From: a virus
Taxonomy: Duplodnaviria > Caudoviricetes
Length of the DNA stretch: 35,011 nt
Reading direction: 5' to 3' (one strand)
IMG/VR virus record: IMGVR_UViG_3300032314_000157
Location: 1-35,011 of that record
The position numbers and the translations under genes were made by a program. The notes beneath the pieces were generated by a model. It was given only the letters and a program-made list of their open reading frames with translations. It was not told where the DNA came from and did no database searches. Shown here piece by piece: positions 61 through 15,613 of this stretch; the first letter of the stretch is position 1; every line of letters begins with the position of its first letter.

Positions 61-1119
61 ATGCAAACAGAATCTTCTCTGAAAATTGGTAAGGATAAAT
101 TTGGTCACACAATTTATGATGAGGCCAAAGTTTTAGAGCTTCGAGCAACCGGGCTAGGTATGAGAAAAATTCACAATCAAACGCTCATTCCCAAGGCGAC
201 ACTTCATAGAATCTTTAAGCGTAACAACATTAAAACTTTTCCATATCAGACAAAAAGATGGGGCAACGCATTCCGGATTAAGGAAAGAAAAAGGATGGTT
301 GGGCAAATATTCAAAAGGGGATCAGAGGCAAGAACCATAACGGCCAAAGTTATTAGGGCAATTAGGGGTGGTTCTTCTTTGCTTGAATCAATAGAAAGAT
401 GCGGGGCTTGCCCAGAAATAGCCTTGCGATGGCTCAAAAAAACAAAAAGCTATGATGCCCTTAAATGGAGAGAGCAAAAAAGAAAGATATCACTTGGCCT
501 ATCGGCAGAACAGATGGAGCTACAAAAAGAACATCGCATTAAGAAAAAGATGGAAATGCAAAAGGCAAAGTATGCAGAAGCACGAAAAAACACGGCCATT
601 CTGATCAAATCATTAAGGGCTGGGATACCGATTGAGATCACGGCGAATCAACTCGGTCTAAACAAATCAACCGCATGGAATTGGGTATATAAAACAAAAG
701 CGTATAAAATTTTGCGGAATAAAATGAATTGCAATTTGAAATACCCCCGCAAAAAGAATATTGGGGTCTTGTCTAAAAAATACACATCGGAAAAGAAAAT
801 GATGCCCGATGCCCGCCAATATGTTGTTGCGGCAAATATCGGTAAGGGCGTTGTCGAGGAAAAGGAAACATGGAAAACAAACCAAATTGGGCAGGGGAGA
901 TCGGGACTAAGGGCGGATTTTTTTGTAAAAGAAGATAACCATATATACGAATGCAAGCAAAGGTGTGATCCCGGAACATCTCAAAGAATGATAGGGCAAA
1001 TTTTCATTTATATAATGGCGGGGTATAGGGTTTCGGCAATAATGCCAAACGACATTATTATCCCAAGCTACCTATCTGAAGCCCTTGAAAGAATGAAAGT
1101 CGAAATGATTCTTATATGA
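61..1119 (+). CDS. Multi-HTH protein with C-terminal PD-(D/E)XK-type endonuclease domain (homing-endonuclease-like)
   Basis: Three HTH-like units; C-terminal RADF...IYECK...IGQIFIY; very basic and AT-rich. Confidence 0.6.
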   Translation: MQTESSLKIGKDKFGHTIYDEAKVLELRATGLGMRKIHNQTLIPKATLHRIFKRNNIKTFPYQTKRWGNAFRIKERKRMVGQIFKRGSEARTITAKVIRAIRGGSSLLESIERCGACPEIALRWLKKTKSYDALKWREQKRKISLGLSAEQMELQKEHRIKKKMEMQKAKYAEARKNTAILIKSLRAGIPIEITANQLGLNKSTAWNWVYKTKAYKILRNKMNCNLKYPRKKNIGVLSKKYTSEKKMMPDARQYVVAANIGKGVVEEKETWKTNQIGQGRSGLRADFFVKEDNHIYECKQRCDPGTSQRMIGQIFIYIMAGYRVSAIMPNDIIIPSYLSEALERMKVEMILI

Positions 1120-1580
1120 AATACCCACAACTTCTAACAAAAAGAATCAGCGAACTTTCTCCCGCAAAATACAATCCCAGAAAAATTACTTCTGATGCTC
1201 TGGGTAGGCTCACAAAATCTTTGAGCGAACTTGGGAATCTTCAGCCGATAACTTGGAACGCCAAGACCGGGAACATAGTCGGAGGCCATCAGCGGTTGAA
1301 ATGCTATCAAGCCCTCGGCAAAGATGAAATCGAGGTATGGGCGGTCTGGTTGGATGAGGCAAAAGAGAAGGCGGCGAACCTAGCTCTTAATAAATTGAGT
1401 GGCGAATTTGATATGCCCCAACTCAAAGACATCCTAGAGGAACTGGACGCAGGGGAGATCGACATAGATATTACCGGGTTCAGCTTGGATGAGATTGGAA
1501 AGATGATGGAGGCCACTAGCCCAGAAGATGAGAAGGGTGGAGAGGGCGAGAAATGCTTGGCGTGTGGGAAGCCCTTGTGA
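1116..1580 (+). CDS. ParB/Srx N-terminal domain protein (terminase-adjacent type) with C-terminal CxxC
   Basis: LSPAKYNPRKI, LQPITWN, IVGGHQRL, ANLALNKLSGEFD, ITGFS; ends CLACGKPL. Confidence 0.85.
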   Translation: MKYPQLLTKRISELSPAKYNPRKITSDALGRLTKSLSELGNLQPITWNAKTGNIVGGHQRLKCYQALGKDEIEVWAVWLDEAKEKAANLALNKLSGEFDMPQLKDILEELDAGEIDIDITGFSLDEIGKMMEATSPEDEKGGEGEKCLACGKPL

Positions 1581-1583
1581 GAA

Positions 1584-2183
1584 ATGATAAGACAAAAAGA
1601 GCTATGCGAGAAGTGGGGGCTAACAAGGGGGGCAATCTCCCAGTTAGTAAAAGCGGGTATGCCCCTTACGAGCGTAGTCGATGCAGAGCGTTGGAAAATA
1701 GCCAATCAAAAGAAGCCAAGCAGGGCGAGGCCGATCTTGTCAGCATCAGCGAACTTATCAGAGACATCAGAGAACTCGGATGCCGAGTCGATCAAATTGG
1801 GAAATCCGCTTGGACGATTACATCGGGCGAGGAGAGCCGAGTTAGTTGCCTACTCGTTAGTTCAGAGGGCGGCCAACGAAAAAAACCCAGTAGCCATGAG
1901 GGCGGCAGTTCAAGGATGGGGCGAAGCAAAAAAGCGAGTCGCAGAAGCAGAAATGGAACACGCTCGGTGGGAAGAAGTGAGCCGAGTCACAGTTCGGATG
2001 GGGGAAGTGCAGGAATGGATAACGAAGTGGCACGGAGCAATCAGATCGCTTCTGGATGCCCTTCCTTCGAGTCTAGCGGCCAGAGCAAACCCATCAGACC
2101 CAGAGTGCGCCAAGCAAGCCATCCAAGACGGAATCAATCAAATCTTCGTTACTATTCAGAAAGCAGAGGGGGCGTTTAAATGA
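1584..2183 (+). CDS. terS: Terminase small subunit (Nu1-like)
   Basis: N-terminal winged HTH (QKELCEKWGLTRGAISQLVKAGMP), coiled coil, C-terminal LDALPSSLA; upstream of GpA-type TerL. Confidence 0.75.
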   Translation: MIRQKELCEKWGLTRGAISQLVKAGMPLTSVVDAERWKIANQKKPSRARPILSASANLSETSENSDAESIKLGNPLGRLHRARRAELVAYSLVQRAANEKNPVAMRAAVQGWGEAKKRVAEAEMEHARWEEVSRVTVRMGEVQEWITKWHGAIRSLLDALPSSLAARANPSDPECAKQAIQDGINQIFVTIQKAEGAFK

Positions 2184-2317
2184 TACTAGGGCTAAAAATA
2201 GGTGTCGGGATAGTGCTTGGAATCGTGCTAATCAATGTGGCGTTCTGGGGTTGCATTATTCTGGCCTATCTGCTCGCCACTTTATTTGAGTGCATCGGGA
2301 AGTGGATAAACAAGTGA
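2180..2317 (+). CDS. Small membrane protein (45 aa, MILGLKIGVGIVLG...)
   Basis: Read manually; ATGA overlap with terS; long hydrophobic stretch. Confidence 0.55.
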   Translation: MILGLKIGVGIVLGIVLINVAFWGCIILAYLLATLFECIGKWINK

Positions 2318-2502
2318 ACAAAAACCAATTAACACCCCAAGAAGCAAGAATCCTTTTTATTCTTCTTGAAAGCAAAACTGGATATGAACTATTGCGGGAT
2401 GCCGTGACCAGCATTTATGGTTATGAAAACGACCATAAAATCAAATGGCCTAAAACCATAAAACGCAAAATCAAAAAACTTTATATGTCTCAATTCAAAT
2501 GA
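2314..2502 (+). CDS. Hypothetical protein (GTG start)
   Basis: GTGA overlap with previous ORF; fits tight tiling. Confidence 0.5.
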   Translation: MNKNQLTPQEARILFILLESKTGYELLRDAVTSIYGYENDHKIKWPKTIKRKIKKLYMSQFK

Positions 2503-2573
2503 ACGAATGTTTCCTCATCATCCTCGCCACCCTCGGCTTGCTAGGATTGATTCTGCCATACTTTGACGAATGA
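2499..2573 (+). CDS. Small hydrophobic peptide (24 aa, MNECFLIILATLGLLGLILPYFDE)
   Basis: ATGA overlaps on both sides fill the gap exactly. Confidence 0.45.
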   Translation: MNECFLIILATLGLLGLILPYFDE

Positions 2574-2878
2574 AAACAACGAAGCCAACAAGAATAGCCT
2601 TGGCCTACTGCCGGAACTCAAGCTACTCAACGCTTTTTATTCCCTCCAAAGGACAACTCAAAAACTTTGAAAGCAAATACGGATTTTCTATGTGTGTAGG
2701 ATGTTGCTTCAAAAACTACCCAAAGACACGGCAGGGAGTGGGAAGATATTGGATGGTTCACTTTCATCACGCAGTTGTTAGGGACAAAGCAGACCCAATC
2801 GCACTTCACAAAACCCTTATGCAGATACCAGAGTTTAGGGATTTATGTGCCCACGATGTTCCATTCTTTGACCAATGA
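2570..2878 (+). CDS. Hypothetical protein
   Basis: ORF with ATGA coupling on both sides. Confidence 0.55.
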   Translation: MKTTKPTRIALAYCRNSSYSTLFIPSKGQLKNFESKYGFSMCVGCCFKNYPKTRQGVGRYWMVHFHHAVVRDKADPIALHKTLMQIPEFRDLCAHDVPFFDQ

Positions 2879-3180
2879 AACGCTCGCCTCTTAAACGCAA
2901 AACCCCACTCAAGCGAGGGGGAAAACTGCGCCGAGTGTCTGCCAAGAGGCGAAAGCAGAATGAAGTTTATTCTGATGTGCGAGAGAAGTTTCTAGGCAAC
3001 ACACCAGTCTGCCAAGTTTGCCAGAGCAAGATGGCGAGCCAAGTTCACCATAGGCGAGGGAGATTCGGGGATAGGCTAAACGAGGTAGAGTTTTTCTTGG
3101 CGGTTTGCTTTGAGTGCCACCATAAAATCCACATGAACCCAGCGTGGGCGTATGCAAAAGATTATCTGGTTAAGAGATGA
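2875..3180 (+). CDS. HNH-type endonuclease (terminase-associated)
   Basis: CQVC...QVHH...LAVCFECHHKIH; directly upstream of TerL. Confidence 0.75.
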   Translation: MKRSPLKRKTPLKRGGKLRRVSAKRRKQNEVYSDVREKFLGNTPVCQVCQSKMASQVHHRRGRFGDRLNEVEFFLAVCFECHHKIHMNPAWAYAKDYLVKR

Positions 3181-4955
3181 ACATCGGGGCGTTCAGCCGT
3201 AGTTTCTTTGAGCCAAGAGAACAACTATCAATCCCAGAATGGGCAGAGAAAAACCTCACGCTCTCGGCAAGAGTAACAAACATACCCGGAGCGTATTCGA
3301 CAACCCTCACCCCCTATGTCCGTGAACCCCTAGAGGCTTTTGGCGATGATTCGATTCGGAGAGTTGTGTTGGTCTGGGGAGCGCAGACCTCAAAGACGAC
3401 AACGATTCTAGCTGGCCTAGCCTACCGAGTAGCAGAACGGCCTTGCCCGGTCTTGTGGGTAATGCCCTCGGAACATCTGGCGCGATCATTTACAGAAACC
3501 CGCTGGCTTCCGATGGTGGACGATTGCCCAGCCCTAGCCAAAGAACGACCAGAAAATACAGACCGAATCAAAATCCTAGAGCAACATTTTAAGCGATGCT
3601 CGGTCTGGTGGGCGGGAACAAGTGCCTCGGCTCTTTCTAGTCGCTCGATTGCTTTGCTCTGTATGGATGAGGTGGACAAGTTCCCAGAGCAAGCAGGCTC
3701 GGGGAGGGAGGCCAATCCGGTGCAGTTAGCAGAGGCACGAGTCAGCACCTACCCCAATCACTTAATCATAGCAACCAGCACCCCAACAACTGCCGACTCA
3801 ATAATCTGGGCTGAATGGCAGAAGGGCGATATGCGCTTCTATTTTGTGCCTTGCCCCCATTGTGGATTAAAACAAAAACTAATCTGGGGACAAGTTAAGT
3901 GGGACGAGGCCGCCAAGATAGAAGATGGCGTTTATGACTATGCCCTAGTGAAATCCTCGACCTATTACGAGTGCGAGGGATGCAAGGGCAAGATTACAGA
4001 TGGACAGAAAACCAAGATGCTTCGAGAGGGCGAATGGAGGGCAACCAATCTAAAGGGCGAACCAGCCAGACGCTCCTATCATCTCAACGGCCTATATGCC
4101 CCTTGGGTATCCTTCGGAAGTTTGGCGGTGAAGTTTCTGCAAGATAAGCACAATGGAATCATCGGCCTTCAGGACTTCGTGAACCGAGTTCTTGCAGAGC
4201 CTTGGATGGAACACGAAAGCGAGAAGATGGAAATTGTGGCTGGCGACTACAAGATGGGCGAGGTTAGAGTTAATGAGAAACTGATTATGGCTTGTGATAT
4301 TCAGGAGGCTGGGGGCTTCCACGCTTGGTGCGTTGTTAGGGCTTGGGATATTGAGGGCAGATCACGGCTTGTTTGGGCTGGAAGGCTTGAGACTTGGGGA
4401 GACATTAAGGCCAAGGCAGACGAGTTTGGGGTGGAATCGAAGTGCGTTTTCTGTGACAGCGGTGACCAAACCAGAGAGGTCTATCTTCATTGTTGCAAAT
4501 GGGGCTTTATGGCGTTGGTCGGTTCAGACCGCACTAGCTTCTCTGAAATTGTGGGGGAGCAAAAGCTACAACGCCCATACGCTCGAATTGCCAATGGCGA
4601 CCCTTTCAGCGGTAAGGCAGTTCAATCGAAGGCAGGGTGGAAGTGGAAGTTCTGCCCAGTCTGGCGGTGGTCAAACCCATCCATCAAAGACATCCTCTCC
4701 AACCTAATCAAAGAACCCGGCTACATCGCTCTCGACACCCCCGATGTTTGGCGTGTGCATATCGAGGCAGAGGTGAAGGTGCGGGTGAAAAACCCTATGA
4801 CTGGAAGAGAAAGGCTTGTATGGAAGCAAGTCGGAAAGCATAATCACTTAATGGATTGCGAGTGTATGAACATCGTGGGTGCGGCTTTATATGGTCGATT
4901 GAAAGTCTCGCCCGCAAGTTTGACAGAAAGTGAGTTTGATAATGGCGAAGGGTGA
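3177..4955 (+). CDS. terL: Terminase large subunit, lambda GpA family
   Basis: TPYVREP, GAQTSKT (Walker A), LCMDEVD (Walker B), STPT, GDMRFYFVPCPHCG, CEGC, DSG, NHLMDC. Confidence 0.95.
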   Translation: MNIGAFSRSFFEPREQLSIPEWAEKNLTLSARVTNIPGAYSTTLTPYVREPLEAFGDDSIRRVVLVWGAQTSKTTTILAGLAYRVAERPCPVLWVMPSEHLARSFTETRWLPMVDDCPALAKERPENTDRIKILEQHFKRCSVWWAGTSASALSSRSIALLCMDEVDKFPEQAGSGREANPVQLAEARVSTYPNHLIIATSTPTTADSIIWAEWQKGDMRFYFVPCPHCGLKQKLIWGQVKWDEAAKIEDGVYDYALVKSSTYYECEGCKGKITDGQKTKMLREGEWRATNLKGEPARRSYHLNGLYAPWVSFGSLAVKFLQDKHNGIIGLQDFVNRVLAEPWMEHESEKMEIVAGDYKMGEVRVNEKLIMACDIQEAGGFHAWCVVRAWDIEGRSRLVWAGRLETWGDIKAKADEFGVESKCVFCDSGDQTREVYLHCCKWGFMALVGSDRTSFSEIVGEQKLQRPYARIANGDPFSGKAVQSKAGWKWKFCPVWRWSNPSIKDILSNLIKEPGYIALDTPDVWRVHIEAEVKVRVKNPMTGRERLVWKQVGKHNHLMDCECMNIVGAALYGRLKVSPASLTESEFDNGEG

Positions 4956-5178
4956 TTTCATTGGGCTACCCCTTGCTACCCTAACTTCTCTTCGTGATAA
5001 GTATATCACTTGTCTTGAGGCGATAGCGGTGGCGGGTTCAAGCTATTCGATAGCTGGTCGTTCGTTTTCAAGAGCGAATCTCGGTGAGGTAAGAGATACG
5101 ATTATGGAGCTAACCCTCGCCATCCAACAAGCGACTGGTACTAGGGTTCGCACAACCTACGCAAACTTCGGATCGTGA
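4942..5178 (+). CDS. Head completion protein (gpW-like)
   Basis: GSSYSIAGRSFSRANL; sits between TerL and portal; ATG 16 nt after TTGACA. Confidence 0.75.
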   Translation: MAKGDFIGLPLATLTSLRDKYITCLEAIAVAGSSYSIAGRSFSRANLGEVRDTIMELTLAIQQATGTRVRTTYANFGS

Positions 5179-7559
5179 AAAAAGCCTCTCTCAATCTGAT
5201 CGACAAGGCGATTGCCTTTGTAAATCCTCAAGGGGCAGTTGATAGGCTTGTTGCTCGTCAAAGGATTAAGAACTTCGAGTATGATGCGGTAAAGTATTCA
5301 AGGCAACGCAAAGGGCCGAGCCAGTTGTCGGGTGCGGAAGATTATCGTTCCAACTATGACCGAGTGGAGTTAATGAAAAGGGCGAGGGACTTGGCAGAGA
5401 ATGTTGGCCTTGTTCGCTCAATCCTTATGAAGTTTGCCAGCCACACCGCCGCGAACATTTCCTACCAAGCCCGAACCGAGAACCCCGAAGTCAATACCGA
5501 GGTAGAAATGTATTGGGCAGAATGGTTCGATAAATGCGACATCTCCACAAGGCATACTGGCTCAACACTTATGCAGGTGGCGATGATCAGCATGTTGCGA
5601 GATGGTGACTTCCTTTTCGTTTTGGTTCGCGATTCTGATGGCAACTTAAAAATACAAGGCATTGAGGGTGATAGACTTGGCGACCCATTCAAAGTCTATA
5701 CTAGCTCGGAGTTAATTGGTGGAATCCATATCGATCAAAGGACTGGCTCGCCCACAGCTTACGATATTTACAGCCGAAGCATTGGGGATATGTACACCTA
5801 TCAAGTAACGATTCCCGCAAGCCAAGCCTTCCACTTGTTCGACCCACTCCGCATTGACCAGTACCGAGGAATCTCCGCTTTCCATACCGCCATCAATGAC
5901 GCAACGGATATTCACGAAATCGTGGGCTTCGAGAAGATGTCGGCCAAGGTTGCTTCTAGTCAGAGTGCAATCATAAAGCGGAATAACAACAATGCTTCCG
6001 ATCTATCAAGCCTCACAAACGACCAAGACATCAACGGAAGCCCAATCAAACTAGAAGCGATTGAGTCTGGTAAAATCTCCTACCTAGAACCGGGTGAGGA
6101 CATCGTGTTCCCCGATGGGCCGAGCCGTCCCTCCGGTGCGTTTGCAGAGTTCCATAAGATTCTACTCCGCAACATTTGCTTGGGCGTTGGCATCCCTTAC
6201 AGCTTCGCCGTTGACCCTTCCGCTATGAGTGGCCCGACTGCTCGCCTTGAGATGCAACAAGCAGGGCGAACCTTCCGCAGATACCAGAAGCTACTAGATG
6301 ATAAGGTTCTGCGACCAATTAAGAACATCGTTATTGCTGATGGGGTAGCAAGGGGATTGATCGAGAACAATGTAGGAAGCAGAACGACTAGGGGCATTTT
6401 CAATTTCGGGGCGAATGTATCTATTGATTTAGGGAGAGAATCTGCCTCAGCTATCTCCGAGTTCAAGACCGGCCTCCGCACAGCCGCCGACATCTACGCC
6501 GAGCGAGGCCAAGATTTTGAAAGTGCTATGCGACAAAGGGCTATTGAGGCCAAGCTGATTAAAGACTTGGCAGAGAAGTATGGCGTAGCCCCAGAGACCA
6601 TTTCCGATATTGTCACCCCAACACCCCCACAACCCCAACTACCGCCTGCCCTTGCGCCAAAACCAGTAGCACCCATAGAGGACAAACCAGAGGAGGATGA
6701 GGATGAGGGGGGCGACCAGAAGCCAATTCCAGAAGACCCGATTGAGCCATCCTCCGAGGAACTAGAGGTTAAAAAAAAAGAAACTGAATTAGATTGCGGA
6801 ACGGGTGCGGGAGGGTTTAAAGAAGGAAATACTTGTGCGGAAGGAGAGGGAGGAGATGAAACAGAGGAAAACACGGGAAGCCAAAAATTTCCACAATACA
6901 AAGAAGCAAAAACAAGAGAAGAGGCGGAGGAAATAGGAAGAAGTTATAGCAAGGAAATTAGCTATAGGGGTATGTCTACCGAACACGCAAATATAACCAA
7001 CAAAGAGATATCTGATTATGTTCGATCAACAAAAGGAGCATTAAGGCTTAAAGAAATTAAGTCACTAAAATTCAATGGCGTTACATTAAGAATGAGGGAA
7101 GGAGCTGTGGCGTCCTATAAGGATTTAACTGGTTTCGATAGTGATGGTGCAATTTATATAAATACGGCAATACTTGGTGATTCTAAAAAGTGGAATGAAT
7201 ATCAAAAAGCAAGCGTGGATGCCGAAAAATTAGTTCGAGCCAAAATAAACACTCTGCCACCAGAAAAAAAACAACTTGCCGAAAAGATGCTTTCCTACAA
7301 AAGACAACTTGTAGATGACACACCCCAAGGAATTATAAGACACGAATTGGGTCATCACTTTGATTATAATTTTATAATGAAAAATCATAAAGAAGAAAGG
7401 CTTAAAATTCTTGCAAACAAGCAAAAATACGAGAAAAACTTGAGCTATCGTGCATCAGAAAATAATGCAGAATATATAGCGGAATCATATTCAGCATACA
7501 GAAGGCAAGAGCCTATAGACCCAGATTTAGAGACAATCTTCAACAGATATAAAAAATAA
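5175..7559 (+). CDS. Lambda-family portal protein with Pro/acidic linker and C-terminal HExxH zincin metallopeptidase domain
   Basis: RARDLAEN, RDGD, HLFDPLRIDQYRGIS, YLEPGEDI, GIPYS; then DCGTGAGGFKEGNTCA tag; HELGH (7341-7355) and SYRASENNAEYIAESY. Confidence 0.9.
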   Translation: MKKASLNLIDKAIAFVNPQGAVDRLVARQRIKNFEYDAVKYSRQRKGPSQLSGAEDYRSNYDRVELMKRARDLAENVGLVRSILMKFASHTAANISYQARTENPEVNTEVEMYWAEWFDKCDISTRHTGSTLMQVAMISMLRDGDFLFVLVRDSDGNLKIQGIEGDRLGDPFKVYTSSELIGGIHIDQRTGSPTAYDIYSRSIGDMYTYQVTIPASQAFHLFDPLRIDQYRGISAFHTAINDATDIHEIVGFEKMSAKVASSQSAIIKRNNNNASDLSSLTNDQDINGSPIKLEAIESGKISYLEPGEDIVFPDGPSRPSGAFAEFHKILLRNICLGVGIPYSFAVDPSAMSGPTARLEMQQAGRTFRRYQKLLDDKVLRPIKNIVIADGVARGLIENNVGSRTTRGIFNFGANVSIDLGRESASAISEFKTGLRTAADIYAERGQDFESAMRQRAIEAKLIKDLAEKYGVAPETISDIVTPTPPQPQLPPALAPKPVAPIEDKPEEDEDEGGDQKPIPEDPIEPSSEELEVKKKETELDCGTGAGGFKEGNTCAEGEGGDETEENTGSQKFPQYKEAKTREEAEEIGRSYSKEISYRGMSTEHANITNKEISDYVRSTKGALRLKEIKSLKFNGVTLRMREGAVASYKDLTGFDSDGAIYINTAILGDSKKWNEYQKASVDAEKLVRAKINTLPPEKKQLAEKMLSYKRQLVDDTPQGIIRHELGHHFDYNFIMKNHKEERLKILANKQKYEKNLSYRASENNAEYIAESYSAYRRQEPIDPDLETIFNRYKK
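6792..6839 (+). repeat. Copy 1 of 48-nt repeat encoding DCGTGAGGFKEGNTCA
   Basis: 41/48 nt identical to 8456-8503; all 7 differences at synonymous third positions. Confidence 0.95.
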
Positions 7560-9097
7560 TGATTACTGAAGATTTTTATAGAGACTTGTTTGGCCTCGCT
7601 GAAGAGCTCGGGTTTCATCCTCCGAAGTTAATGGATATTCAAGAAAAAAACTCGGAGATTTTATCGAGCTTTAATATACAAGACCTAAAAATGCTCATCG
7701 CCGGAATGATGGGCGGCATTGAGTTGGCAAAATATGATGGGATTGATTTTACCCCACCAGAAGGAGCTAGGGAGGCCGCCAAAAGAGCCTTGGATGTTAG
7801 AGAGACAAAACCACCCAGCCAAAGGGGAATGACCCCAGTAGGCATCGCCAGAGCTAGGGACTTGCAAAATGGCGTGAAGCTATCACCCGACACAGTAAGG
7901 CGAATGTTGAACTTCCTAACTCGTCACGAAGTCGATAAGAAGGGTGCAACTTGGGATGAGCAGGGCAAGGGCTGGCAAGCGTGGCACGGATGGGGCGGAG
8001 ATGCTGGCTATGCTTGGGCAAGGAAAGTAGTTAAGCAGATGGAGGCTAGGGATAGCAAAGAACTCGCCCGACCAGTCTCTCAAACACCTGCTCCTCCTAA
8101 AGAGAGAATCAAAGGCTCGAAGGAGAACCCAGAAGGCACGGCATCCACCCGAAGCAAAGCAGGGGACATCGAGATTTCATCCGAGAACGAGGAGGCATTG
8201 AAGAACAAGATTGCCGAGTTCAAAGACAAGCACCCAGCAAGGAAAGCCCCCACCCTTGGAGCATTGAAGAAAGTGTTTCGCAGGGGGGCGGGTGCATTCT
8301 CGACCAGCTTTAGGCCAACGATTACCGGGGGAAAGCCCAACTCAAGGAACGCTTGGGCGATGGCAAGGGTGAATAAGTTTCTCAAGATGGCGGGTGGGGG
8401 AGAGGTCAAAGACTCCTACCGCAAGGCAGATGGCGATTTATTGGAGGAAAGATTTGATTGTGGAACTGGTGCTGGTGGATTTAAGGAAGGAAATACTTGT
8501 GCTGGCGGGGGTGAGGAAACAAAAATATCAAATAAAATAGAAAAAAATAGGCAATTCATTGATGATGTAGATAAAGAAAGCAAAAATAATAAAGAAAAAA
8601 TAATTTTTGTAAAGGACGGTAAAAAAATATCTGAAACATATGGGGTGGATGATAGGGCAGACTTAACTGAAGAACAAAAGAATCTTTTGAAATCATCAAG
8701 CGGAGAAATCACAACAATCCACAACCATCCACAAGAGAGTATTCCATCTAGTCTGGATATTGGGCTTTTTGCTGGAAGCGGGGGAGAGCATATTATATCA
8801 ACACCTACATCAATATATAAAATAAATATCGACAAAAAAACAGAAGATGAGGCAAGAAATCTATCTGAAAATTATGCCAGCGTTAACTATAAAATACAAA
8901 AAGAACTAAATTCATATCTTTCAGATAGATTCCCAAGAAAAATAGGAGGAGGTGCTGGCATAGACGGATTCTCATATAGAAATAAAGGAGAATTTGAAAA
9001 AGCAAAAAATGCAGAAAAGAAAATATCTGAAAGCATATTTTCAGATTTTGCAAAAACAAACGGGTTTGCTTTTGATGTAATTGACAAGAAGTCATAA
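7559..9097 (+). CDS. Multidomain head-associated protein: W/G-rich domain, DUF5824-like domain, tag, JAB/MPN-like domain
   Basis: PPEGAREAAKRAL...WHGWGGDAGYAWA; VFRRGAGAF...WAMARVNKF...ADGDLL; tag; TIHNHPQESIPSSLD. Confidence 0.7.
   Translation: MITEDFYRDLFGLAEELGFHPPKLMDIQEKNSEILSSFNIQDLKMLIAGMMGGIELAKYDGIDFTPPEGAREAAKRALDVRETKPPSQRGMTPVGIARARDLQNGVKLSPDTVRRMLNFLTRHEVDKKGATWDEQGKGWQAWHGWGGDAGYAWARKVVKQMEARDSKELARPVSQTPAPPKERIKGSKENPEGTASTRSKAGDIEISSENEEALKNKIAEFKDKHPARKAPTLGALKKVFRRGAGAFSTSFRPTITGGKPNSRNAWAMARVNKFLKMAGGGEVKDSYRKADGDLLEERFDCGTGAGGFKEGNTCAGGGEETKISNKIEKNRQFIDDVDKESKNNKEKIIFVKDGKKISETYGVDDRADLTEEQKNLLKSSSGEITTIHNHPQESIPSSLDIGLFAGSGGEHIISTPTSIYKINIDKKTEDEARNLSENYASVNYKIQKELNSYLSDRFPRKIGGGAGIDGFSYRNKGEFEKAKNAEKKISESIFSDFAKTNGFAFDVIDKKS
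8456..8503 (+). repeat. Copy 2 of 48-nt repeat encoding DCGTGAGGFKEGNTCA
   Basis: See copy 1; longest exact shared run GAAGGAAATACTTGTGC (17 nt). Confidence 0.95.
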
Positions 9098-9101
9098 CCT
9101 T

Positions 9102-10184
9102 ATGCCCCTACCCATTCCCTCTGCTGACGAATCCGAACAAGACTTTGTTTCCCGCTTTATGGGTGACGAAGAGGCAGTATCCAAGTTTCCAGATGAGACC
9201 CAGCGTTCAGCCGTAGCCTATTCGACCTATCGGGACGAGGAGCTAGATGAAATGGAGCTAGGCGGGGTGAGCATTTTGGAGGTGGGAGAGGCCAAAGGAC
9301 ACGACCTTTTCGTGGATAAAACAAGCCTAGAGACTGCCCTCAAACTTATGAGCAACGCCAAGAATGGCGTGAAGGTTAAAATGAACCACGGAAGCGGATT
9401 GGACGCAGTTGTCGGCTTTGCCCGCAACCCCCGCATCGAAGGGGACAAGCTGGTTGCCGACCTTCGCCTACTCCGCAACTCGCCCCACTACGGCCTAATC
9501 AAAGAGATGGCCTCCGAAGCACCCGACCAGTTTGGAGTTTCCCTAGCCTTTGTGAATGAGTCCGAGACCATCAACGGCAAGGACTACATTCGCCCCCAGA
9601 GCATCGCTTCTGCTGATTTAGTTTCCTCCCCTGCGGCCACCAATGGCCTCTTTGAAGAAATGGTAAAGTTTATGGAAAAGCTGGGATATGTAAGCGGAGG
9701 AAAGACAATCCCAGCCGTAGTTAAACAAGCCGTGGAGGAAGCTCCACTTGACAAAAAGGACAAAACAAATATGGAAAACAATTATTCGAAAGATATCGAG
9801 GACATCAAGGTTCGCTTGGCGGCCATTGAAGATTCGATGAAACCCAAAGAAGAAATTAAAAAAGAGGAGATGGCCGAAGATAAGAAGCCCTCCGAGACTC
9901 CCGCCCCTGCTCCCGAAATCTCTGTTGAGGTTGAACCCTCCGAAGATAAAAAGGAAGAGATGAGCGAAGTCGTGAAGAAAGTTCTCACCGAGTTCGGCAT
10001 TAAGCCCATCTCCGCTTCGCCAGTTGTCGAAGCCCCTGCGAAGGTTGAACCCAAAACTTTTGAAGCACTCGTGGCCGCCCACAGCGATTACGGAACTTCA
10101 AAGCTCAAGGCTATGCAAGCCGTGATGCTGTCTAACCCTAAAGAATACTCCGAGGCTCTGTCTCGCGGTATCTCAAAACTCTAA
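9102..10184 (+). CDS. Prohead protease / scaffold protein
   Basis: GEAKGH, MNH, VVG, FGVS, SADLVSSPAATNGLF protease-like core; acidic Pro-rich C-terminal scaffold; ATG 9102 preferred over TTG 9081. Confidence 0.8.
   Translation: MPLPIPSADESEQDFVSRFMGDEEAVSKFPDETQRSAVAYSTYRDEELDEMELGGVSILEVGEAKGHDLFVDKTSLETALKLMSNAKNGVKVKMNHGSGLDAVVGFARNPRIEGDKLVADLRLLRNSPHYGLIKEMASEAPDQFGVSLAFVNESETINGKDYIRPQSIASADLVSSPAATNGLFEEMVKFMEKLGYVSGGKTIPAVVKQAVEEAPLDKKDKTNMENNYSKDIEDIKVRLAAIEDSMKPKEEIKKEEMAEDKKPSETPAPAPEISVEVEPSEDKKEEMSEVVKKVLTEFGIKPISASPVVEAPAKVEPKTFEALVAAHSDYGTSKLKAMQAVMLSNPKEYSEALSRGISKL
9771..10184 (+). CDS. Probable nested in-frame scaffold protein (Nu3-like internal start, MENNYSK...)
   Basis: Internal ATG preceded by TTGACA (9748-9753), AAGGA and an A-rich leader. 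Confidence 0.55.
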   Translation: MENNYSKDIEDIKVRLAAIEDSMKPKEEIKKEEMAEDKKPSETPAPAPEISVEVEPSEDKKEEMSEVVKKVLTEFGIKPISASPVVEAPAKVEPKTFEALVAAHSDYGTSKLKAMQAVMLSNPKEYSEALSRGISKL

Positions 10185-10202
10185 ACCAAAGGATAAAAGA
10201 AA

Positions 10203-10602: not shown

Positions 10603-11565
10603 ATGAGCTTTATTTCTGGTGGCACGACCATTCGTGCTGATATCAACCAAGCCCTCATCGAATCTCCCGCAGAGATCGGCTTGATCGGTGCGGAAGTTCT
10701 CCCTCTCTTGCCCGTTCCGGCAAAGAGCGGAACTTACCTCAAAGTGCAGACGGCTGATGCTGGTCTGCTAGATGCCGATGCGGCGAAGCGTAGTGCTGGT
10801 TCTGAATACGCACGGGCTTCAAGAAAATTCACCTCTGATAATTACGATTGTCAGGAAACCGGACTGGAAGAATTGTTGGACGATTCTTTCCGTGCGGATT
10901 CTGCCAGATTTTTTCAAATCGAGGCCGAAACAGCGAGGTTCTTGCTCCGACAAGTTAAGCTCTCCCACGAAAAGCGGGTGGCTGATTTGTTGTTCGCAAC
11001 AACGACCCCCTTCACCACGGCTGATTTAAGCCCTACGGCTTCATACATTGAAGGCAATCTGACAACCATCAACGCCCCTGCGGATGTTGCGGCTGGCAAG
11101 CTCGCTCTTAATCGCTTGGGTTATGCGGCCAATGCGGTCATTATGTCGGCCAATGTGTACGAGCGGGTTCGTCGTACCACCCTCCTACAGAATCAGTTCT
11201 ACGGAGTTGTGTCGAATACTGGCGGTCGTCTCCTAGACGAAGCACAGATTGCCGAAGCGTTCGGTGTGGATAAAGTCTACATCGGTCGTGCGGCCATCAA
11301 TACTGCCAACAAGAACAAGCCTTACTCTGGTTCGTTCATTGTTCCGGACACCAAGATTGTTGTTGCCAATATCTCTAGCGGTCAGTTCACCGCTGGCGGC
11401 ATCGGACGCACCTTGGTCTGGTCGGAAGATGCTCCCGGTGGTTTCGTCTCCGAGAGCTATCGTGACGAGGCTCGTCGCTCGAATGTTCTCCGTGTTCGCA
11501 TGAACACAGCCGAGAAGGTCATTGATGCGAACGCCGCCGTCCGTATCACCACGACTTACAGCTAA
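10603..11565 (+). CDS. Major capsid protein (lambda gpE-like)
   Basis: 320 aa; IGAEVLPLLPV, YDCQETGL, HEKRVADLLF, ESYRDE...RVRM; followed by strong terminator. Confidence 0.85.
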   Translation: MSFISGGTTIRADINQALIESPAEIGLIGAEVLPLLPVPAKSGTYLKVQTADAGLLDADAAKRSAGSEYARASRKFTSDNYDCQETGLEELLDDSFRADSARFFQIEAETARFLLRQVKLSHEKRVADLLFATTTPFTTADLSPTASYIEGNLTTINAPADVAAGKLALNRLGYAANAVIMSANVYERVRRTTLLQNQFYGVVSNTGGRLLDEAQIAEAFGVDKVYIGRAAINTANKNKPYSGSFIVPDTKIVVANISSGQFTAGGIGRTLVWSEDAPGGFVSESYRDEARRSNVLRVRMNTAEKVIDANAAVRITTTYS

Positions 11566-12823: not shown

Positions 12824-14473
12824 ATGAAACACGACATCTCACTCTATCTCATAGCTGGTAATGAAGAAGAATATATTGAGCGTTGCCTCAAATCGTTCTC
12901 AATCGCAAAAGAAATGGTTGTATGTATTTCTAGGGGGTCAGCTACGCCCGATAAGACCGAGGAAATTGCAAAAGGGTTGGGAGCGAAGATCGTTCATTAC
13001 CAGAATAAAAGAACTGATTGGAATCACATAGATGACTTTGCCACGGCAAGGAACACGGCTCTTGAGGCTTGCTCAAGCGAGTGGTGTTTATGGGTCGATG
13101 CTGACGATGTAATGGCCGAGGATGGGGCGAAGGTGGTCGAAGAGGCTATTGACCTTGCCATTCAAAAAGACGCTCACCTAGTGGCGTTAAAATACAATGT
13201 GGACAACGCTGGACTCATTCCGCTTCGAGAAGAAATCTCCAAGAAAGGCACTTGTAGCTGGAAGAACCGAGTTCACGAAATGCTGGTTTGCAAAGAACCA
13301 AACAAGACGATTGGCGTGGACAAGATTTTCAGAATCCACAAACCTCACGGCTACAAGCCAAGGAGTGCAGAGAGGAACTTAAACATCTTGGCCGACACGC
13401 TTGCCCCAGCCGCTAACTCCCTTTATTACCAAGCCCAAGAGTATTTCCTATCTGGGCAGATTGAAAAGTGTATTGATTCAAGTATGCGAGCGTTGGCATT
13501 CCCAGAGCTAGAGGACACGCTCCGATACGATGTGCTTTGCAACTTGGGGAGAGTTGCACCAGAAAACGAGAGGCTTTCTTATCTTGGACAAGCCGTAGCC
13601 CTACAACCCGATAGGCGAGAGGCTTATTTCTATATAGCAAATCATTGGTCTGGAAAGGGAAGCTGGATAAAAGCGTATGGGGCAGTTCGTTCTTGTCTGA
13701 CTCTACATCGCCCCAAAGCCCACTACTGGAATCTAGTCGAGGCGATTTACAACTGGCAAGCTATGGACTTATACGAGACCGCATCGGTATGCGTTGGAGA
13801 AACTGCCGAGGCTGAAAAGATTAAGAAGATGCGACCAGCCCCCAAGATCAGCATTATTCACGCCACAAGGGGCAGACCGCAAGTGGCTTGGCAGAGGCGA
13901 TGGATGTGGCTTTCTTTAGCCGAGAAGCCCCTAGAAATTGAGTGGCTCTTTATGGTCGATCACAACGACCCAACCGACTACACCCCCCACCAAGCTATCA
14001 GATGCAATCCGGGCGGGATGATTAACGCTTGGAACGCAGGGGCAAAAATAGCCAAAGGGGATATTGTTATTCAAATGAGCGATGATTGGACACCCCCCCG
14101 CCATTGGGATGCCCTAATTTCGAACGCTATTGGGGATACAACGCAAGAGAAAGTGCTGGCAGTATCAGATGGCCTACGGCAAGACAAGCTCCTCTGTATG
14201 GCGATTCTGACGCAATCTAGACTCAAGAAGCAGGGGCATCTATTCCACCCCGACTACCAAGATTCGGATGGCATCTATTCCGACAACGAGTTCACGGATA
14301 GAGCCTATGCAGAACAAGCCGTAGTTGAGGCTAGACATATCCAGTTTAAGCACGATAACCCTATGTTTAATGGCGGCCAACCAGACGAACAATTAAAGAA
14401 CCACAACAAGCCAGAATTCTACGAGAAAGGAAAAGCGATCTATGAAAAACGCAAAGCAAATAATTGGATGTAG
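12824..14473 (+). CDS. GT2 glycosyltransferase + TPR-like region + second GT-A domain
   Basis: NEEEYIERCLKS, DDFATARN, WVDADD, RVHE; YYQAQEY, QPDRREAY; ISIIHATRGRP, AWNAGA, MSDDW, YSDNEF. Confidence 0.85.
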   Translation: MKHDISLYLIAGNEEEYIERCLKSFSIAKEMVVCISRGSATPDKTEEIAKGLGAKIVHYQNKRTDWNHIDDFATARNTALEACSSEWCLWVDADDVMAEDGAKVVEEAIDLAIQKDAHLVALKYNVDNAGLIPLREEISKKGTCSWKNRVHEMLVCKEPNKTIGVDKIFRIHKPHGYKPRSAERNLNILADTLAPAANSLYYQAQEYFLSGQIEKCIDSSMRALAFPELEDTLRYDVLCNLGRVAPENERLSYLGQAVALQPDRREAYFYIANHWSGKGSWIKAYGAVRSCLTLHRPKAHYWNLVEAIYNWQAMDLYETASVCVGETAEAEKIKKMRPAPKISIIHATRGRPQVAWQRRWMWLSLAEKPLEIEWLFMVDHNDPTDYTPHQAIRCNPGGMINAWNAGAKIAKGDIVIQMSDDWTPPRHWDALISNAIGDTTQEKVLAVSDGLRQDKLLCMAILTQSRLKKQGHLFHPDYQDSDGIYSDNEFTDRAYAEQAVVEARHIQFKHDNPMFNGGQPDEQLKNHNKPEFYEKGKAIYEKRKANNWM

Positions 14474-14687
14474 GAAATCAAAAAAGGGGGAGAATGCGAA
14501 GGGGCTTGGTGTGATTACCTTCGGTAAGTCTAGCATAGACAAAACAAAGTATGTGCTAGTTGATATTACCTATGATGATAAGGCGGGGAAGGAATTGTAT
14601 GAGGCTGGGATGCTCGCATTGAAGCACGACAAGGAATCCGTGATTGCCTATGTAATTCGCAAGGCTTTAGAGGCGAAAATTAAATGA
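14442..14687 (+). CDS. Hypothetical protein
   Basis: ORF tiling between the two GT genes; start uncertain. Confidence 0.5.
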   Translation: MKNAKQIIGCRKSKKGENAKGLGVITFGKSSIDKTKYVLVDITYDDKAGKELYEAGMLALKHDKESVIAYVIRKALEAKIK

Positions 14688-15613
14688 AAACAGCAGATGT
14701 TTTATTTAGTTGTTATGAGCCTCCTTCTTTTGGGATTTTTGGATTATCAGAAGCAAAGGAATATGGAGTTGTTAAAAATTTCTTCCCAATGCCTCAAAAC
14801 CCAGACCTTGTAATTAAGACATTAAGGGAATCAACGGCAGATGTGATTATCTTAATTTCACCAGTATATTTTGGCGAGTTCTTTGTATCAAAAGCAAAGG
14901 AGTTGATATCTATTGGAAAGCCGATTATTGAGCTTGCTTGTGAATGGACTTGGGAAAATCCAACTATTCAATTTCATAAGAATTGGCAAGAAAACAGAAT
15001 CTTTGATGCGAACTATTATTTCTGTACGCTTGAGGCAGATAGGAAAAGAATGGTTGATATGGGCAGAAAAGCCTATCCCCTAAAGATGTTTGCATCAAAA
15101 AATGCTTTTCCCAAGGGGCCGCAATTAAGCCAGAGGGTACAGAAATTCTGCTTTATTGGAGCAATCGGAGAAGATATGTCGGGATTGTATTCAGAAAGAC
15201 GAAGAGTGCTTCAAGCATTATTAAGGAAAAATTTAATTGATATTATTAGTGTCCCGAAGGGAATCACAACAAACCATATTGTTTCCTATGCTTATGGTAT
15301 GTATGCTGGCATATTTTGTGCCCCTTGTAATGGAAAAGCTCACAGTATAAGGCTATATGAAGGGGCATTAGCTGGTGGATTTCTTTTTGAAGTGCAGAAT
15401 ATCATAGAGCAAAATAGAGTTTTTTTTAACAATCAACACGCTATTTCGATTCCAGAGGGAATTGACGAACAAGAATTATGTGAAAGAGTAGCGTCCATCA
15501 ATTTTTCTGTTGTTTCCGAAATGGCTGAAAATGCTAGAGAGATGGTTTTGAAAAATCACCTACCACAAAATGTTATTTCTGAAATTATTGATACAGCATT
15601 AGAGAAAATCTGA
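14684..15613 (+). CDS. GT-B glycosyltransferase (CgeB/Glyco_trans_1_2-like)
   Basis: FCFIGA...YSERRRVL, SIRLYEGALAGG, ENAREMVLKNH; AT-rich. Confidence 0.65.
   Translation: MKTADVLFSCYEPPSFGIFGLSEAKEYGVVKNFFPMPQNPDLVIKTLRESTADVIILISPVYFGEFFVSKAKELISIGKPIIELACEWTWENPTIQFHKNWQENRIFDANYYFCTLEADRKRMVDMGRKAYPLKMFASKNAFPKGPQLSQRVQKFCFIGAIGEDMSGLYSERRRVLQALLRKNLIDIISVPKGITTNHIVSYAYGMYAGIFCAPCNGKAHSIRLYEGALAGGFLFEVQNIIEQNRVFFNNQHAISIPEGIDEQELCERVASINFSVVSEMAENAREMVLKNHLPQNVISEIIDTALEKI

Follow-up and report, generated by a model that had tools for sequence, protein, structure and literature searches.

A recurring Cys-loop tag opens exchangeable enzyme-like cassettes in the portal region of a tailed phage and may head cargo released by the head protease

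Introduction

Why does one tailed phage carry the same 16-amino-acid (aa) peptide in front of two unrelated enzyme-like domains, both joined to its head proteins? The question is raised by IMG/VR record IMGVR_UViG_3300032314_000157 (Duplodnaviria; Caudoviricetes), a virus record of 35,011 bases assessed as 96% complete (CheckV), which was analysed over its whole length, hereafter the window. The peptide, a Cys-loop tag with the sequence DCGTGAGGFKEGNTCA, is encoded at 6792-6839 in the portal open reading frame (ORF) at 5175-7559 and again at 8456-8503 in the following ORF at 7559-9097. An earlier reading made from the letters of the window, here called the sequence-only reading, had proposed that the tag opens exchangeable effector cassettes in a polymorphic system independent of the MuF head proteins, the tag acting as a packaging, ejection or processing signal and possibly as a recombination anchor. 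To our knowledge, the choice of cargo, its retention and its ejection are known in small tailed phages for few systems, namely the T4 capsid-targeting signal (CTS), MuF and some ejection proteins. Here we describe the tag, the borders of the cassettes, their empty and alternatively filled slots, the linkage to head genes and a modelled JAB fold, and we propose how the encoded modules may be cut, packaged and delivered.

Results

The two copies of the tag differ at 7 of 48 nucleotides, all of them third codon positions and all synonymous, reproducing what the sequence-only reading had reported at the same two places; from a synonymous fraction of 0.236, the chance of seven synonymous differences out of seven is ∼4e-5. 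The tag pattern occurs twice in the window and in none of 100 shuffles, and the tag is the longest repeat within 5175-10200. Downstream of the two copies GC content is 0.36 and 0.32, compared with 0.49-0.53 in the flanking head domains, and GC content at third codon positions (GC3) is 0.28 and 0.21, compared with 0.51-0.59. AT-rich segments had been placed at about 6780-7650 and 8440-9085, and relatives with an empty site set borders near to these, as follows (↓ marks a candidate cut here and below).

6789..7687, + strand: cassette 1, optional AT-rich DNA comprising tag, zincin, stop and a short coupled peptide; in empty-site relatives the match ends at 6788 and starts again at 7688
6792..6839, + strand: Cys-loop tag, copy 1 (pattern search, comparison of the copies)
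8438..9099, + strand: cassette 2, optional AT-rich DNA comprising its own site E-E-R-F↓D, tag and JAB module; empty-site relatives end at DGDLL and resume at 9100
8456..8503, + strand: Cys-loop tag, copy 2 (pattern search, comparison of the copies)

The head domains that flank the cassettes are these.

5175..6620, + strand: lambda-family portal core, first bead of the head polyprotein (PF05136, E 4e-55, aa 55-371; phrog_21)
6621..6779, + strand: Pro/acidic linker, which differs among relatives
7730..8050, + strand: domain A, a conserved head-associated domain of unknown function (phrog_2859, E 2e-20)
8069..8437, + strand: domain B, with a weak DUF5824 match (PF19141, E 0.0015, under the cut-off)

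Alignment of relatives from portal to protease revealed cassette variation at both slots. Of 593 loci related to domain A and domain B, the best 80 were mapped, with portals 85-98% identical; the slot counts are of contigs, the loci not being deduplicated by genome. Portal, domain A and domain B normally form one ORF in these relatives, portal and domain A sharing one frame in 72 of the 73 loci that hold both. Read against this arrangement, the two 'genes' of the window appear as one polyprotein split only by the stop of cassette 1. The modules had been thought to be fused to separate head genes, of which the portal fusion stands, while the second 'head gene' is the rear half of the portal polyprotein. 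Slot 1, between portal and domain A, is untagged in 63/73 loci and carries the CGTG tag in 10/73, filled with coiled coils, an ART-like module, another zincin and up to three consecutive tags. Slot 2, after domain B, is untagged in 53/74 loci, where the chain simply ends, CGTG-tagged in 7/74 and occupied by a variant two-cysteine tag in 14/74. A third slot, between domains A and B, is vacant in the window and holds a variant tag in 15/77 loci, and a fourth, after the protease domain, holds a tagged module in three loci (L180, 6190-6231; L370, 4436; L372). GC3 of tagged modules was below that of domain B of the same locus in 50/50 cases (0.31 vs 0.58). An untagged Cys-rich bead of ∼125 aa, bounded by E-L junctions and with no PHROG match, was also seen at slot 1 or the middle slot (L166, 5617-6000; L151, 5012-5830). 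Just upstream of cassette 1, relatives share with the window a run of ∼10 A (K-K-K) at 6771-6781, where slippage, if it occurs, could render the cassette part-time.

Filled slots differ between loci and between samples. In L170, the single split locus, a different first cassette precedes a zincin 98.7% identical to that of the window, and P0002 encodes a 1152-aa unsplit portal fusion ending in the window's JAB at 94%. JAB copies were detected by tblastn in L137/L031 and L086; the related-locus scan, which overlooks relatives that tblastn finds, gave two zincin loci and no JAB locus. Chains with at least two conflict-type domains, or with such domains joined to a head protein, are exemplified in the window by portal-zincin and domain A/B-JAB, and two or three modules per chain are present in P0002, L152 and L187. 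Sequencing runs X4 and X6, from other studies, hold the head DNA at a summed depth of about 330-3700 and the cassette bodies at 0; in X6 a contig joins 6788 to 7686, further contigs of these runs depart at 8514 into another module, and a sister sample has the zincin cassette behind different upstream sequence. The best independent metagenomes holding window DNA are freshwater. One contig of the probable source run covers 5175-9700 with zero differences, so an error confined to this assembly does not explain the stop at 7557-7559, and L170 and L058 have the same stop and restart. An assembly artefact was rejected, as was the interpretation of a joint of 6745 to 8456 in run X2 as a deletion between the tags, the intervening letters encoding another slot-1 junction.

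These exchanges bear on the role of the tag in recombination. DNA identity between the window and L170 begins at the tag, and L170 and L187 part right after it, as would suit a tag that is a mere DNA recombination anchor of selfish, neutral cassettes and whose peptide is inert. Such an anchor is very improbable given that all seven differences are synonymous, that empty slots lack the tag and that the peptide recurs in phages with three portal families, and a pure DNA repeat was rejected. Of the recombination anchor proposed earlier, what remains is that exchanges between filled slots break at the tag; empty slots have none, so it is unneeded for first insertion. Cassette exchange would proceed by homologous recombination in the head DNA on either side, the tag serving as one 5' arm where one filled slot exchanges with another.

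The tag is widespread and is not bound to particular domains. The strict pattern was found in 117 IMG/VR stretches, in about 210 metagenome stretches on contigs and in 10 GTDB stretches, the latter including two complete Singulisphaera chromosomes. The IMG/VR loci and the window together yielded 101 unique modules, and the 98 long enough to cluster fall by first domain into 58 clusters, a grouping in which truncated modules may under-cluster; the tag does not always precede the same domains, and fixed pairing with one domain was rejected. Enzyme families typical of polyvalent proteins were matched (E ≤0.01) by 18 of 77 scanned modules, comprising ART-PolyVal, exoenzyme ART, PARP, zeta kinase, 2H, GNAT, topoisomerase IB and metallopeptidase. 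Linkage to head genes was also borne out: of 28 tagged contigs chosen across lineages, 27 have genes for terminase, portal, protease or capsid, on a scan of 98 of their 165 ORFs. In-frame tags were seen on portals of the HK97, lambda and Mu types and on S78 proteases, and in one case on MuF, which is present in 9/28 contigs. In the window's genome the profiles PF04233 and PF06152, used here rather than the MuF3/MuF4 profiles of Jamet 2017, gave 0 matches with positive controls, and membership of the system in the MuF family was rejected, a MuF domain carrier not being found. The proposed independence from MuF is correct for this genome but not for the tag in general.

Further arrangements were seen in individual tagged loci. 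On the chromosome of Singulisphaera acidiphila DSM 18658 (L199, 4873-7539) a portal-tag fusion lies in a prophage-like head block, and on that of Singulisphaera sp. PoT (L193, 5860-7290) the post-portal gene consists of the tag and a DddA-like deaminase (E 2.5e-9), an overlapping 126-aa ORF following in a toxin-immunity-like manner. Small ORFs of 27-73 aa after zeta-kinase and topoisomerase IB-like modules (L014, L034, L049, L075, L195) are further partner candidates. L049 (5959-10815) encodes a 1619-aa polyprotein with five tags, in which a Y-N-[SG]-x motif, a candidate loading signal, appears in the N-terminal leader and again a few residues upstream of several junctions.

The modules of the window had been assigned to two different metalloenzyme folds, and both assignments were retained, that of the JAB by model fold and that of the zincin by motif and profile.

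6840..7559, + strand: zincin-like metallopeptidase module, HExxH at 7341-7355 and downstream E-x-x-A-E at 7470-7484 (motif, profile, language-model neighbours)
7559..7624, + strand: short coupled peptide travelling with the zincin, candidate inhibitor or restart leader (3/3 distinct zincin loci with DNA)
8516..9097, + strand: JAB/JAMM-fold module, E 8591, H 8720, H 8726, S 8747, D 8756 (motif, structure model)

Neither module matches above cut-off in Pfam, PHROG or NCBIfam, and length-limited homolog searches, with fused forms outside their reach, gave 1 and 0 relatives. Module 1 is identified as a zincin by motif and profile: H155, E156, H159, E198 and E202 are invariant in 15 tagged zincin modules, the profile matches an M34-type catalytic domain (E 2e-4), the language-model (Atlas) neighbours are M48/M90/ATLF clusters at 0.93-0.95 and Pfam Peptidase_Mx is matched weakly, the fold model built from 4 sequences having a predicted local distance difference test (pLDDT) score of 39.5, too low to show a fold. 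The JAB motif E..HNHP..S..D spans 8591-8758, with a spacing that we take to be one residue shorter than in the classic JAMM motif. In an alignment of 74 sequences H69, H71 and D81 are invariant and E26 and S78 are each present at ≥90%; a 4-sequence profile matched 1,213 clusters, and the model from 74 sequences has a pLDDT of 93.7. According to this model, module 2 has the MPN/JAB fold. The top 16 VIA rows are all JAB/MPN-domain entries, with deaminases from Z 5.5, and the best match has Z 7.7 and a root mean square deviation of 3.8 with 111 aligned (Foldseek E 0.005), compared with Z 7.5 for Cap3 and 6.8 for RadC. The model resembles uncharacterised and minor-capsid (MuF-type) phage proteins more closely than JAMM/MPN proteins. 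RadC-type JABs have been argued to act on nucleic acids and not on ubiquitin-like proteins (Iyer 2017, PMC5512222).

Among the 150 best JAB relatives, 10 carry this tag and 20 carry a D-x-x-G-[RK]-[FW] hairpin at the same position before the domain, often just after K or F; in L196 the hairpin occupies the tag's usual place after the leader. Variant tags contain D-x-x-G-x-F, which suggests that the Cys loop may be a stapled form of that hairpin.

The two modules also differ in what follows them. Stop and start codons overlap at the end of the zincin, and cassette 1 includes the first 22 codons of ORF 7559. The coupled peptide encoded there recurs behind this zincin in L170 and L058, and P0060 carries it joined to another bead, a tagged JAB. 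Of the 28 HExxH modules listed for the lineage, 25 end in a stop, then a short fused peptide (15) or a separate ORF of 82-86 aa (10), and the other three are one zincin family, in frame in two; non-zincin modules at slot 1 remain in frame. The JAB is followed directly by the protease start, with no small ORF between. The coupled peptide recalls the small ORFs that come after MuF toxins (89%; PMC5576092), which makes it an immunity candidate, although it may equally be a restart leader. The earlier statement that no immunity gene is evident gives way to this cassette-specific inhibitor candidate.

Candidate processing sites and a candidate cutter were assigned from comparison of the junctions.

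6780..6794, + strand: likely head-protease site 1, E-T-E-L↓D, inferred from covariation
7721..7729, + strand: likely protease site E-L↓A before domain A, untagged (relatives' junctions)
8060..8068, + strand: likely protease site E-L↓A before domain B, at the vacant third slot (relatives' junctions)
9102..10184, + strand: likely head-maturation protease/scaffold, candidate cutter, His 9387, Ser 9540, Asp 9615 (2/10 aligned homologs match PHROG head maturation protease)

In homologs of the protease His and Ser are invariant and Asp is near-invariant. The residue classes preceding the tag are L/F, K, R and E. In multi-tag contigs the upstream class agrees in 80 of 89 classified pairs, compared with 34% under permutation, a figure that loses weight through the relatedness of the contigs and through classes set by our own rule; some of the nine mismatches involve a variant tag, whose junction lies further up. 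At the tagless junction of domain A we observed, for tags that follow L/F, E-L↓A or E-M; for K, T-K↓A or E-K↓A; for R, E-R↓A or Q-R↓D; and for E, R-E↓A. Tag class and domain A junction agree in 11 of 13 lineage groups, which were set by eye, with one mixed, one unclear and one row unreadable, and this likewise tempers the argument. With a single exception, HK97-type portals occur with K or R; the window's protease family occurs with L/F or E. A motif varying as a set across the head module is expected of a maturation-protease site, and prohead proteases cut many head proteins, portal included, at short motifs (PMC10052503). The processing signal is likely the lineage-specific site just before the tag, so the tag would remain on the cargo. 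The processing role given to the tag itself thus shifts to this site, which is present at untagged junctions too.

A related explanation is that the tag belongs to the protease recognition site as a prime-side element and is without function once cutting is done. It would account for the position of the tag, 1-6 residues past the candidate P1 residue in nearly all cases, but not for the absence of a tag at the junctions before domains A and B, nor for a tag that stays constant while P1 varies among L/F, K, R and E, and we regard it as improbable.

The head block of the window runs from the small terminase and a gpA-type terminase (3177-4955) through the lambda-family portal (5175-7559) and ORF 7559-9097 to the likely protease/scaffold, a cement protein and the major capsid protein. 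The last (window 10603-11565) falls into two groups among the relatives whose portals are 85-98% identical, identity to the protein of the window being mostly 63-71% or 95-96%, indicating that the head genes are mosaic. Between capsid and tail genes lie two glycosyltransferase-like genes (12824-15613; PF00535, E 3e-16, and a weak PF13524 match), for which virion glycosylation is possible. In a host look-up the GTDB tag stretches (n=10) came mostly from Planctomycetota, Verrucomicrobiota and Lentisphaerae records; the two from the window's lineage are contig-level pieces of metagenome-assembled genomes, possibly misbinned, and the host was not found.

Discussion

Comparison among relatives argues strongly that the cassette system is real. 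Combined, the observations suggest that the modules are cut loose in the head, retained there and delivered along with the DNA as early effectors against the host or against its defences, a reading that we consider probable. The portal region would be a string of domains with E-L/F junctions, into which optional AT-rich cassettes, each consisting of junction, Cys-loop tag and enzyme-like module, are inserted and exchanged. The polyprotein would enter the prohead along with the portal, where the 9102 protease would very probably cut after L/F, and there is good reason to expect the freed modules as cargo in the mature head. We lean slightly towards their delivery and action on host targets. Chances appear even that the tag, as the new N-terminus, would form a small hairpin by which the module is held in the head or led out through the portal. 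More tentatively, the coupled peptide would restrain the zincin during assembly. Once split from the portal, the rear half of the polyprotein (ORF 7559) may depend on domain A or B to bind the head.

Several points weigh against this reading, besides the limits on the junction comparisons given above. Cargo in frame with the portal needs no tag for entry into the head, and untagged beads exist. The motif E-[LF]-[ADEG] also occurs inside folded domains and in the terminase, a short motif alone being no predictor of cutting, and the 9102 protease has no direct match in Pfam, PHROG or PDB. No enzyme match was obtained for 59 of the 77 scanned modules, some of which are coiled coils, and the structure matches of the JAB are middling and indicate no substrate. 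The GenBank phage set gave no cultured relative and no match to the protease (9102-10184), portal identity being ≤27% among the 20 listed of 482 records.

The tag could instead act before cutting, as a capsid-targeting signal like the T4 CTS that brings cargo into the prohead. Stand-alone polyproteins do open with a tag within 5-20 residues of the start (L014, L034, L049, L194). From T4 internal proteins an N-terminal peptide is removed (PMC9958956), whereas here the tag stands beyond the likely cut site; moreover it is kept on modules already fused to the portal and is repeated up to five times per chain, which makes targeting of this kind unlikely. A further alternative, that the modules are maturation helpers, i.e. 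self-processing peptidases rather than host-directed effectors, would fit the peptidase folds of both window modules and the autoproteolysis proposed for zincin MPTases of polyvalent proteins (Iyer 2017, PMC5512222). Most relatives have the same head genes without either module, and the slots also hold ART, kinase and coiled-coil modules; we judge this role scarcely probable. The preferred reading of released and delivered effectors, in which the tag stays on the cargo, can be extended. The Cys loop may be one of a few interchangeable, universal headers that hold protease-released cargo in the capsid and feed its exit through the portal, across tailed phages with unrelated head modules. Site, header and enzyme, with or without a cleavable inhibitor peptide fused to the next bead, would then form a plug-in grammar with which a small phage population rotates an injected arsenal without MuF, and for loading foreign proteins into heads of the lambda, HK97 or Mu type the 16-aa tag would suffice. 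We put this extension forward tentatively.

A portable header and a readable cut-site code would allow candidate injected anti-defence enzymes to be listed from metagenomes, where most of the 58 module clusters have no family, head-protease specificity to be predicted and perhaps chosen proteins to be loaded into phage heads. The lineage of the window adds a population view, with near-identical phages having the same slots either empty or occupied.

Portal-fused effectors without MuF are already published, and the tag was found in no paper: literature searches by motif and by concept, with the supplements and file-transfer (FTP) files of Iyer 2017, which may list it, and most subscription papers outside their scope, returned no description of it. 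Packaging and injection have been predicted for enzyme domains (zincin MPTase, JAB, ART, 2H, kinase, GNAT) that occur as fusions with portal, MuF or head protease (PMC5512222, PMC9503650). The window shares with these polyvalent and portal-fused effectors both the fusion of enzyme domains to the portal and the location in a terminase-portal-capsid block, and the HExxH and E-x-x-A-E of module 1 fit the zincin MPTase of Iyer 2017; a common header peptide, a lineage-specific cut site and slot exchange within populations do not figure in the available text of these descriptions. MuF polymorphic toxins (PMC5576092) likewise place a variable C-terminal enzyme on a head protein beside the portal, with a small downstream ORF as candidate immunity, whereas the window has no MuF domain, several slots both internal and terminal, and a small candidate partner fused to the next bead. 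T4 internal proteins processed by gp21 (PMC9958956) and SPN3US ejection proteins (PMC10052503) share with it a short peptide and prohead-protease cutting on head-carried, ejected proteins, the cutting, carriage and ejection being predicted for the window. The T4 capsid-targeting peptide is N-terminal and removed, whereas the tag of the window is internal, lies C-terminal to the likely site and would stay on the module. Unlike the T4 and SPN3US systems, the window combines a small lambda-type head with cargo that is fused to the portal.

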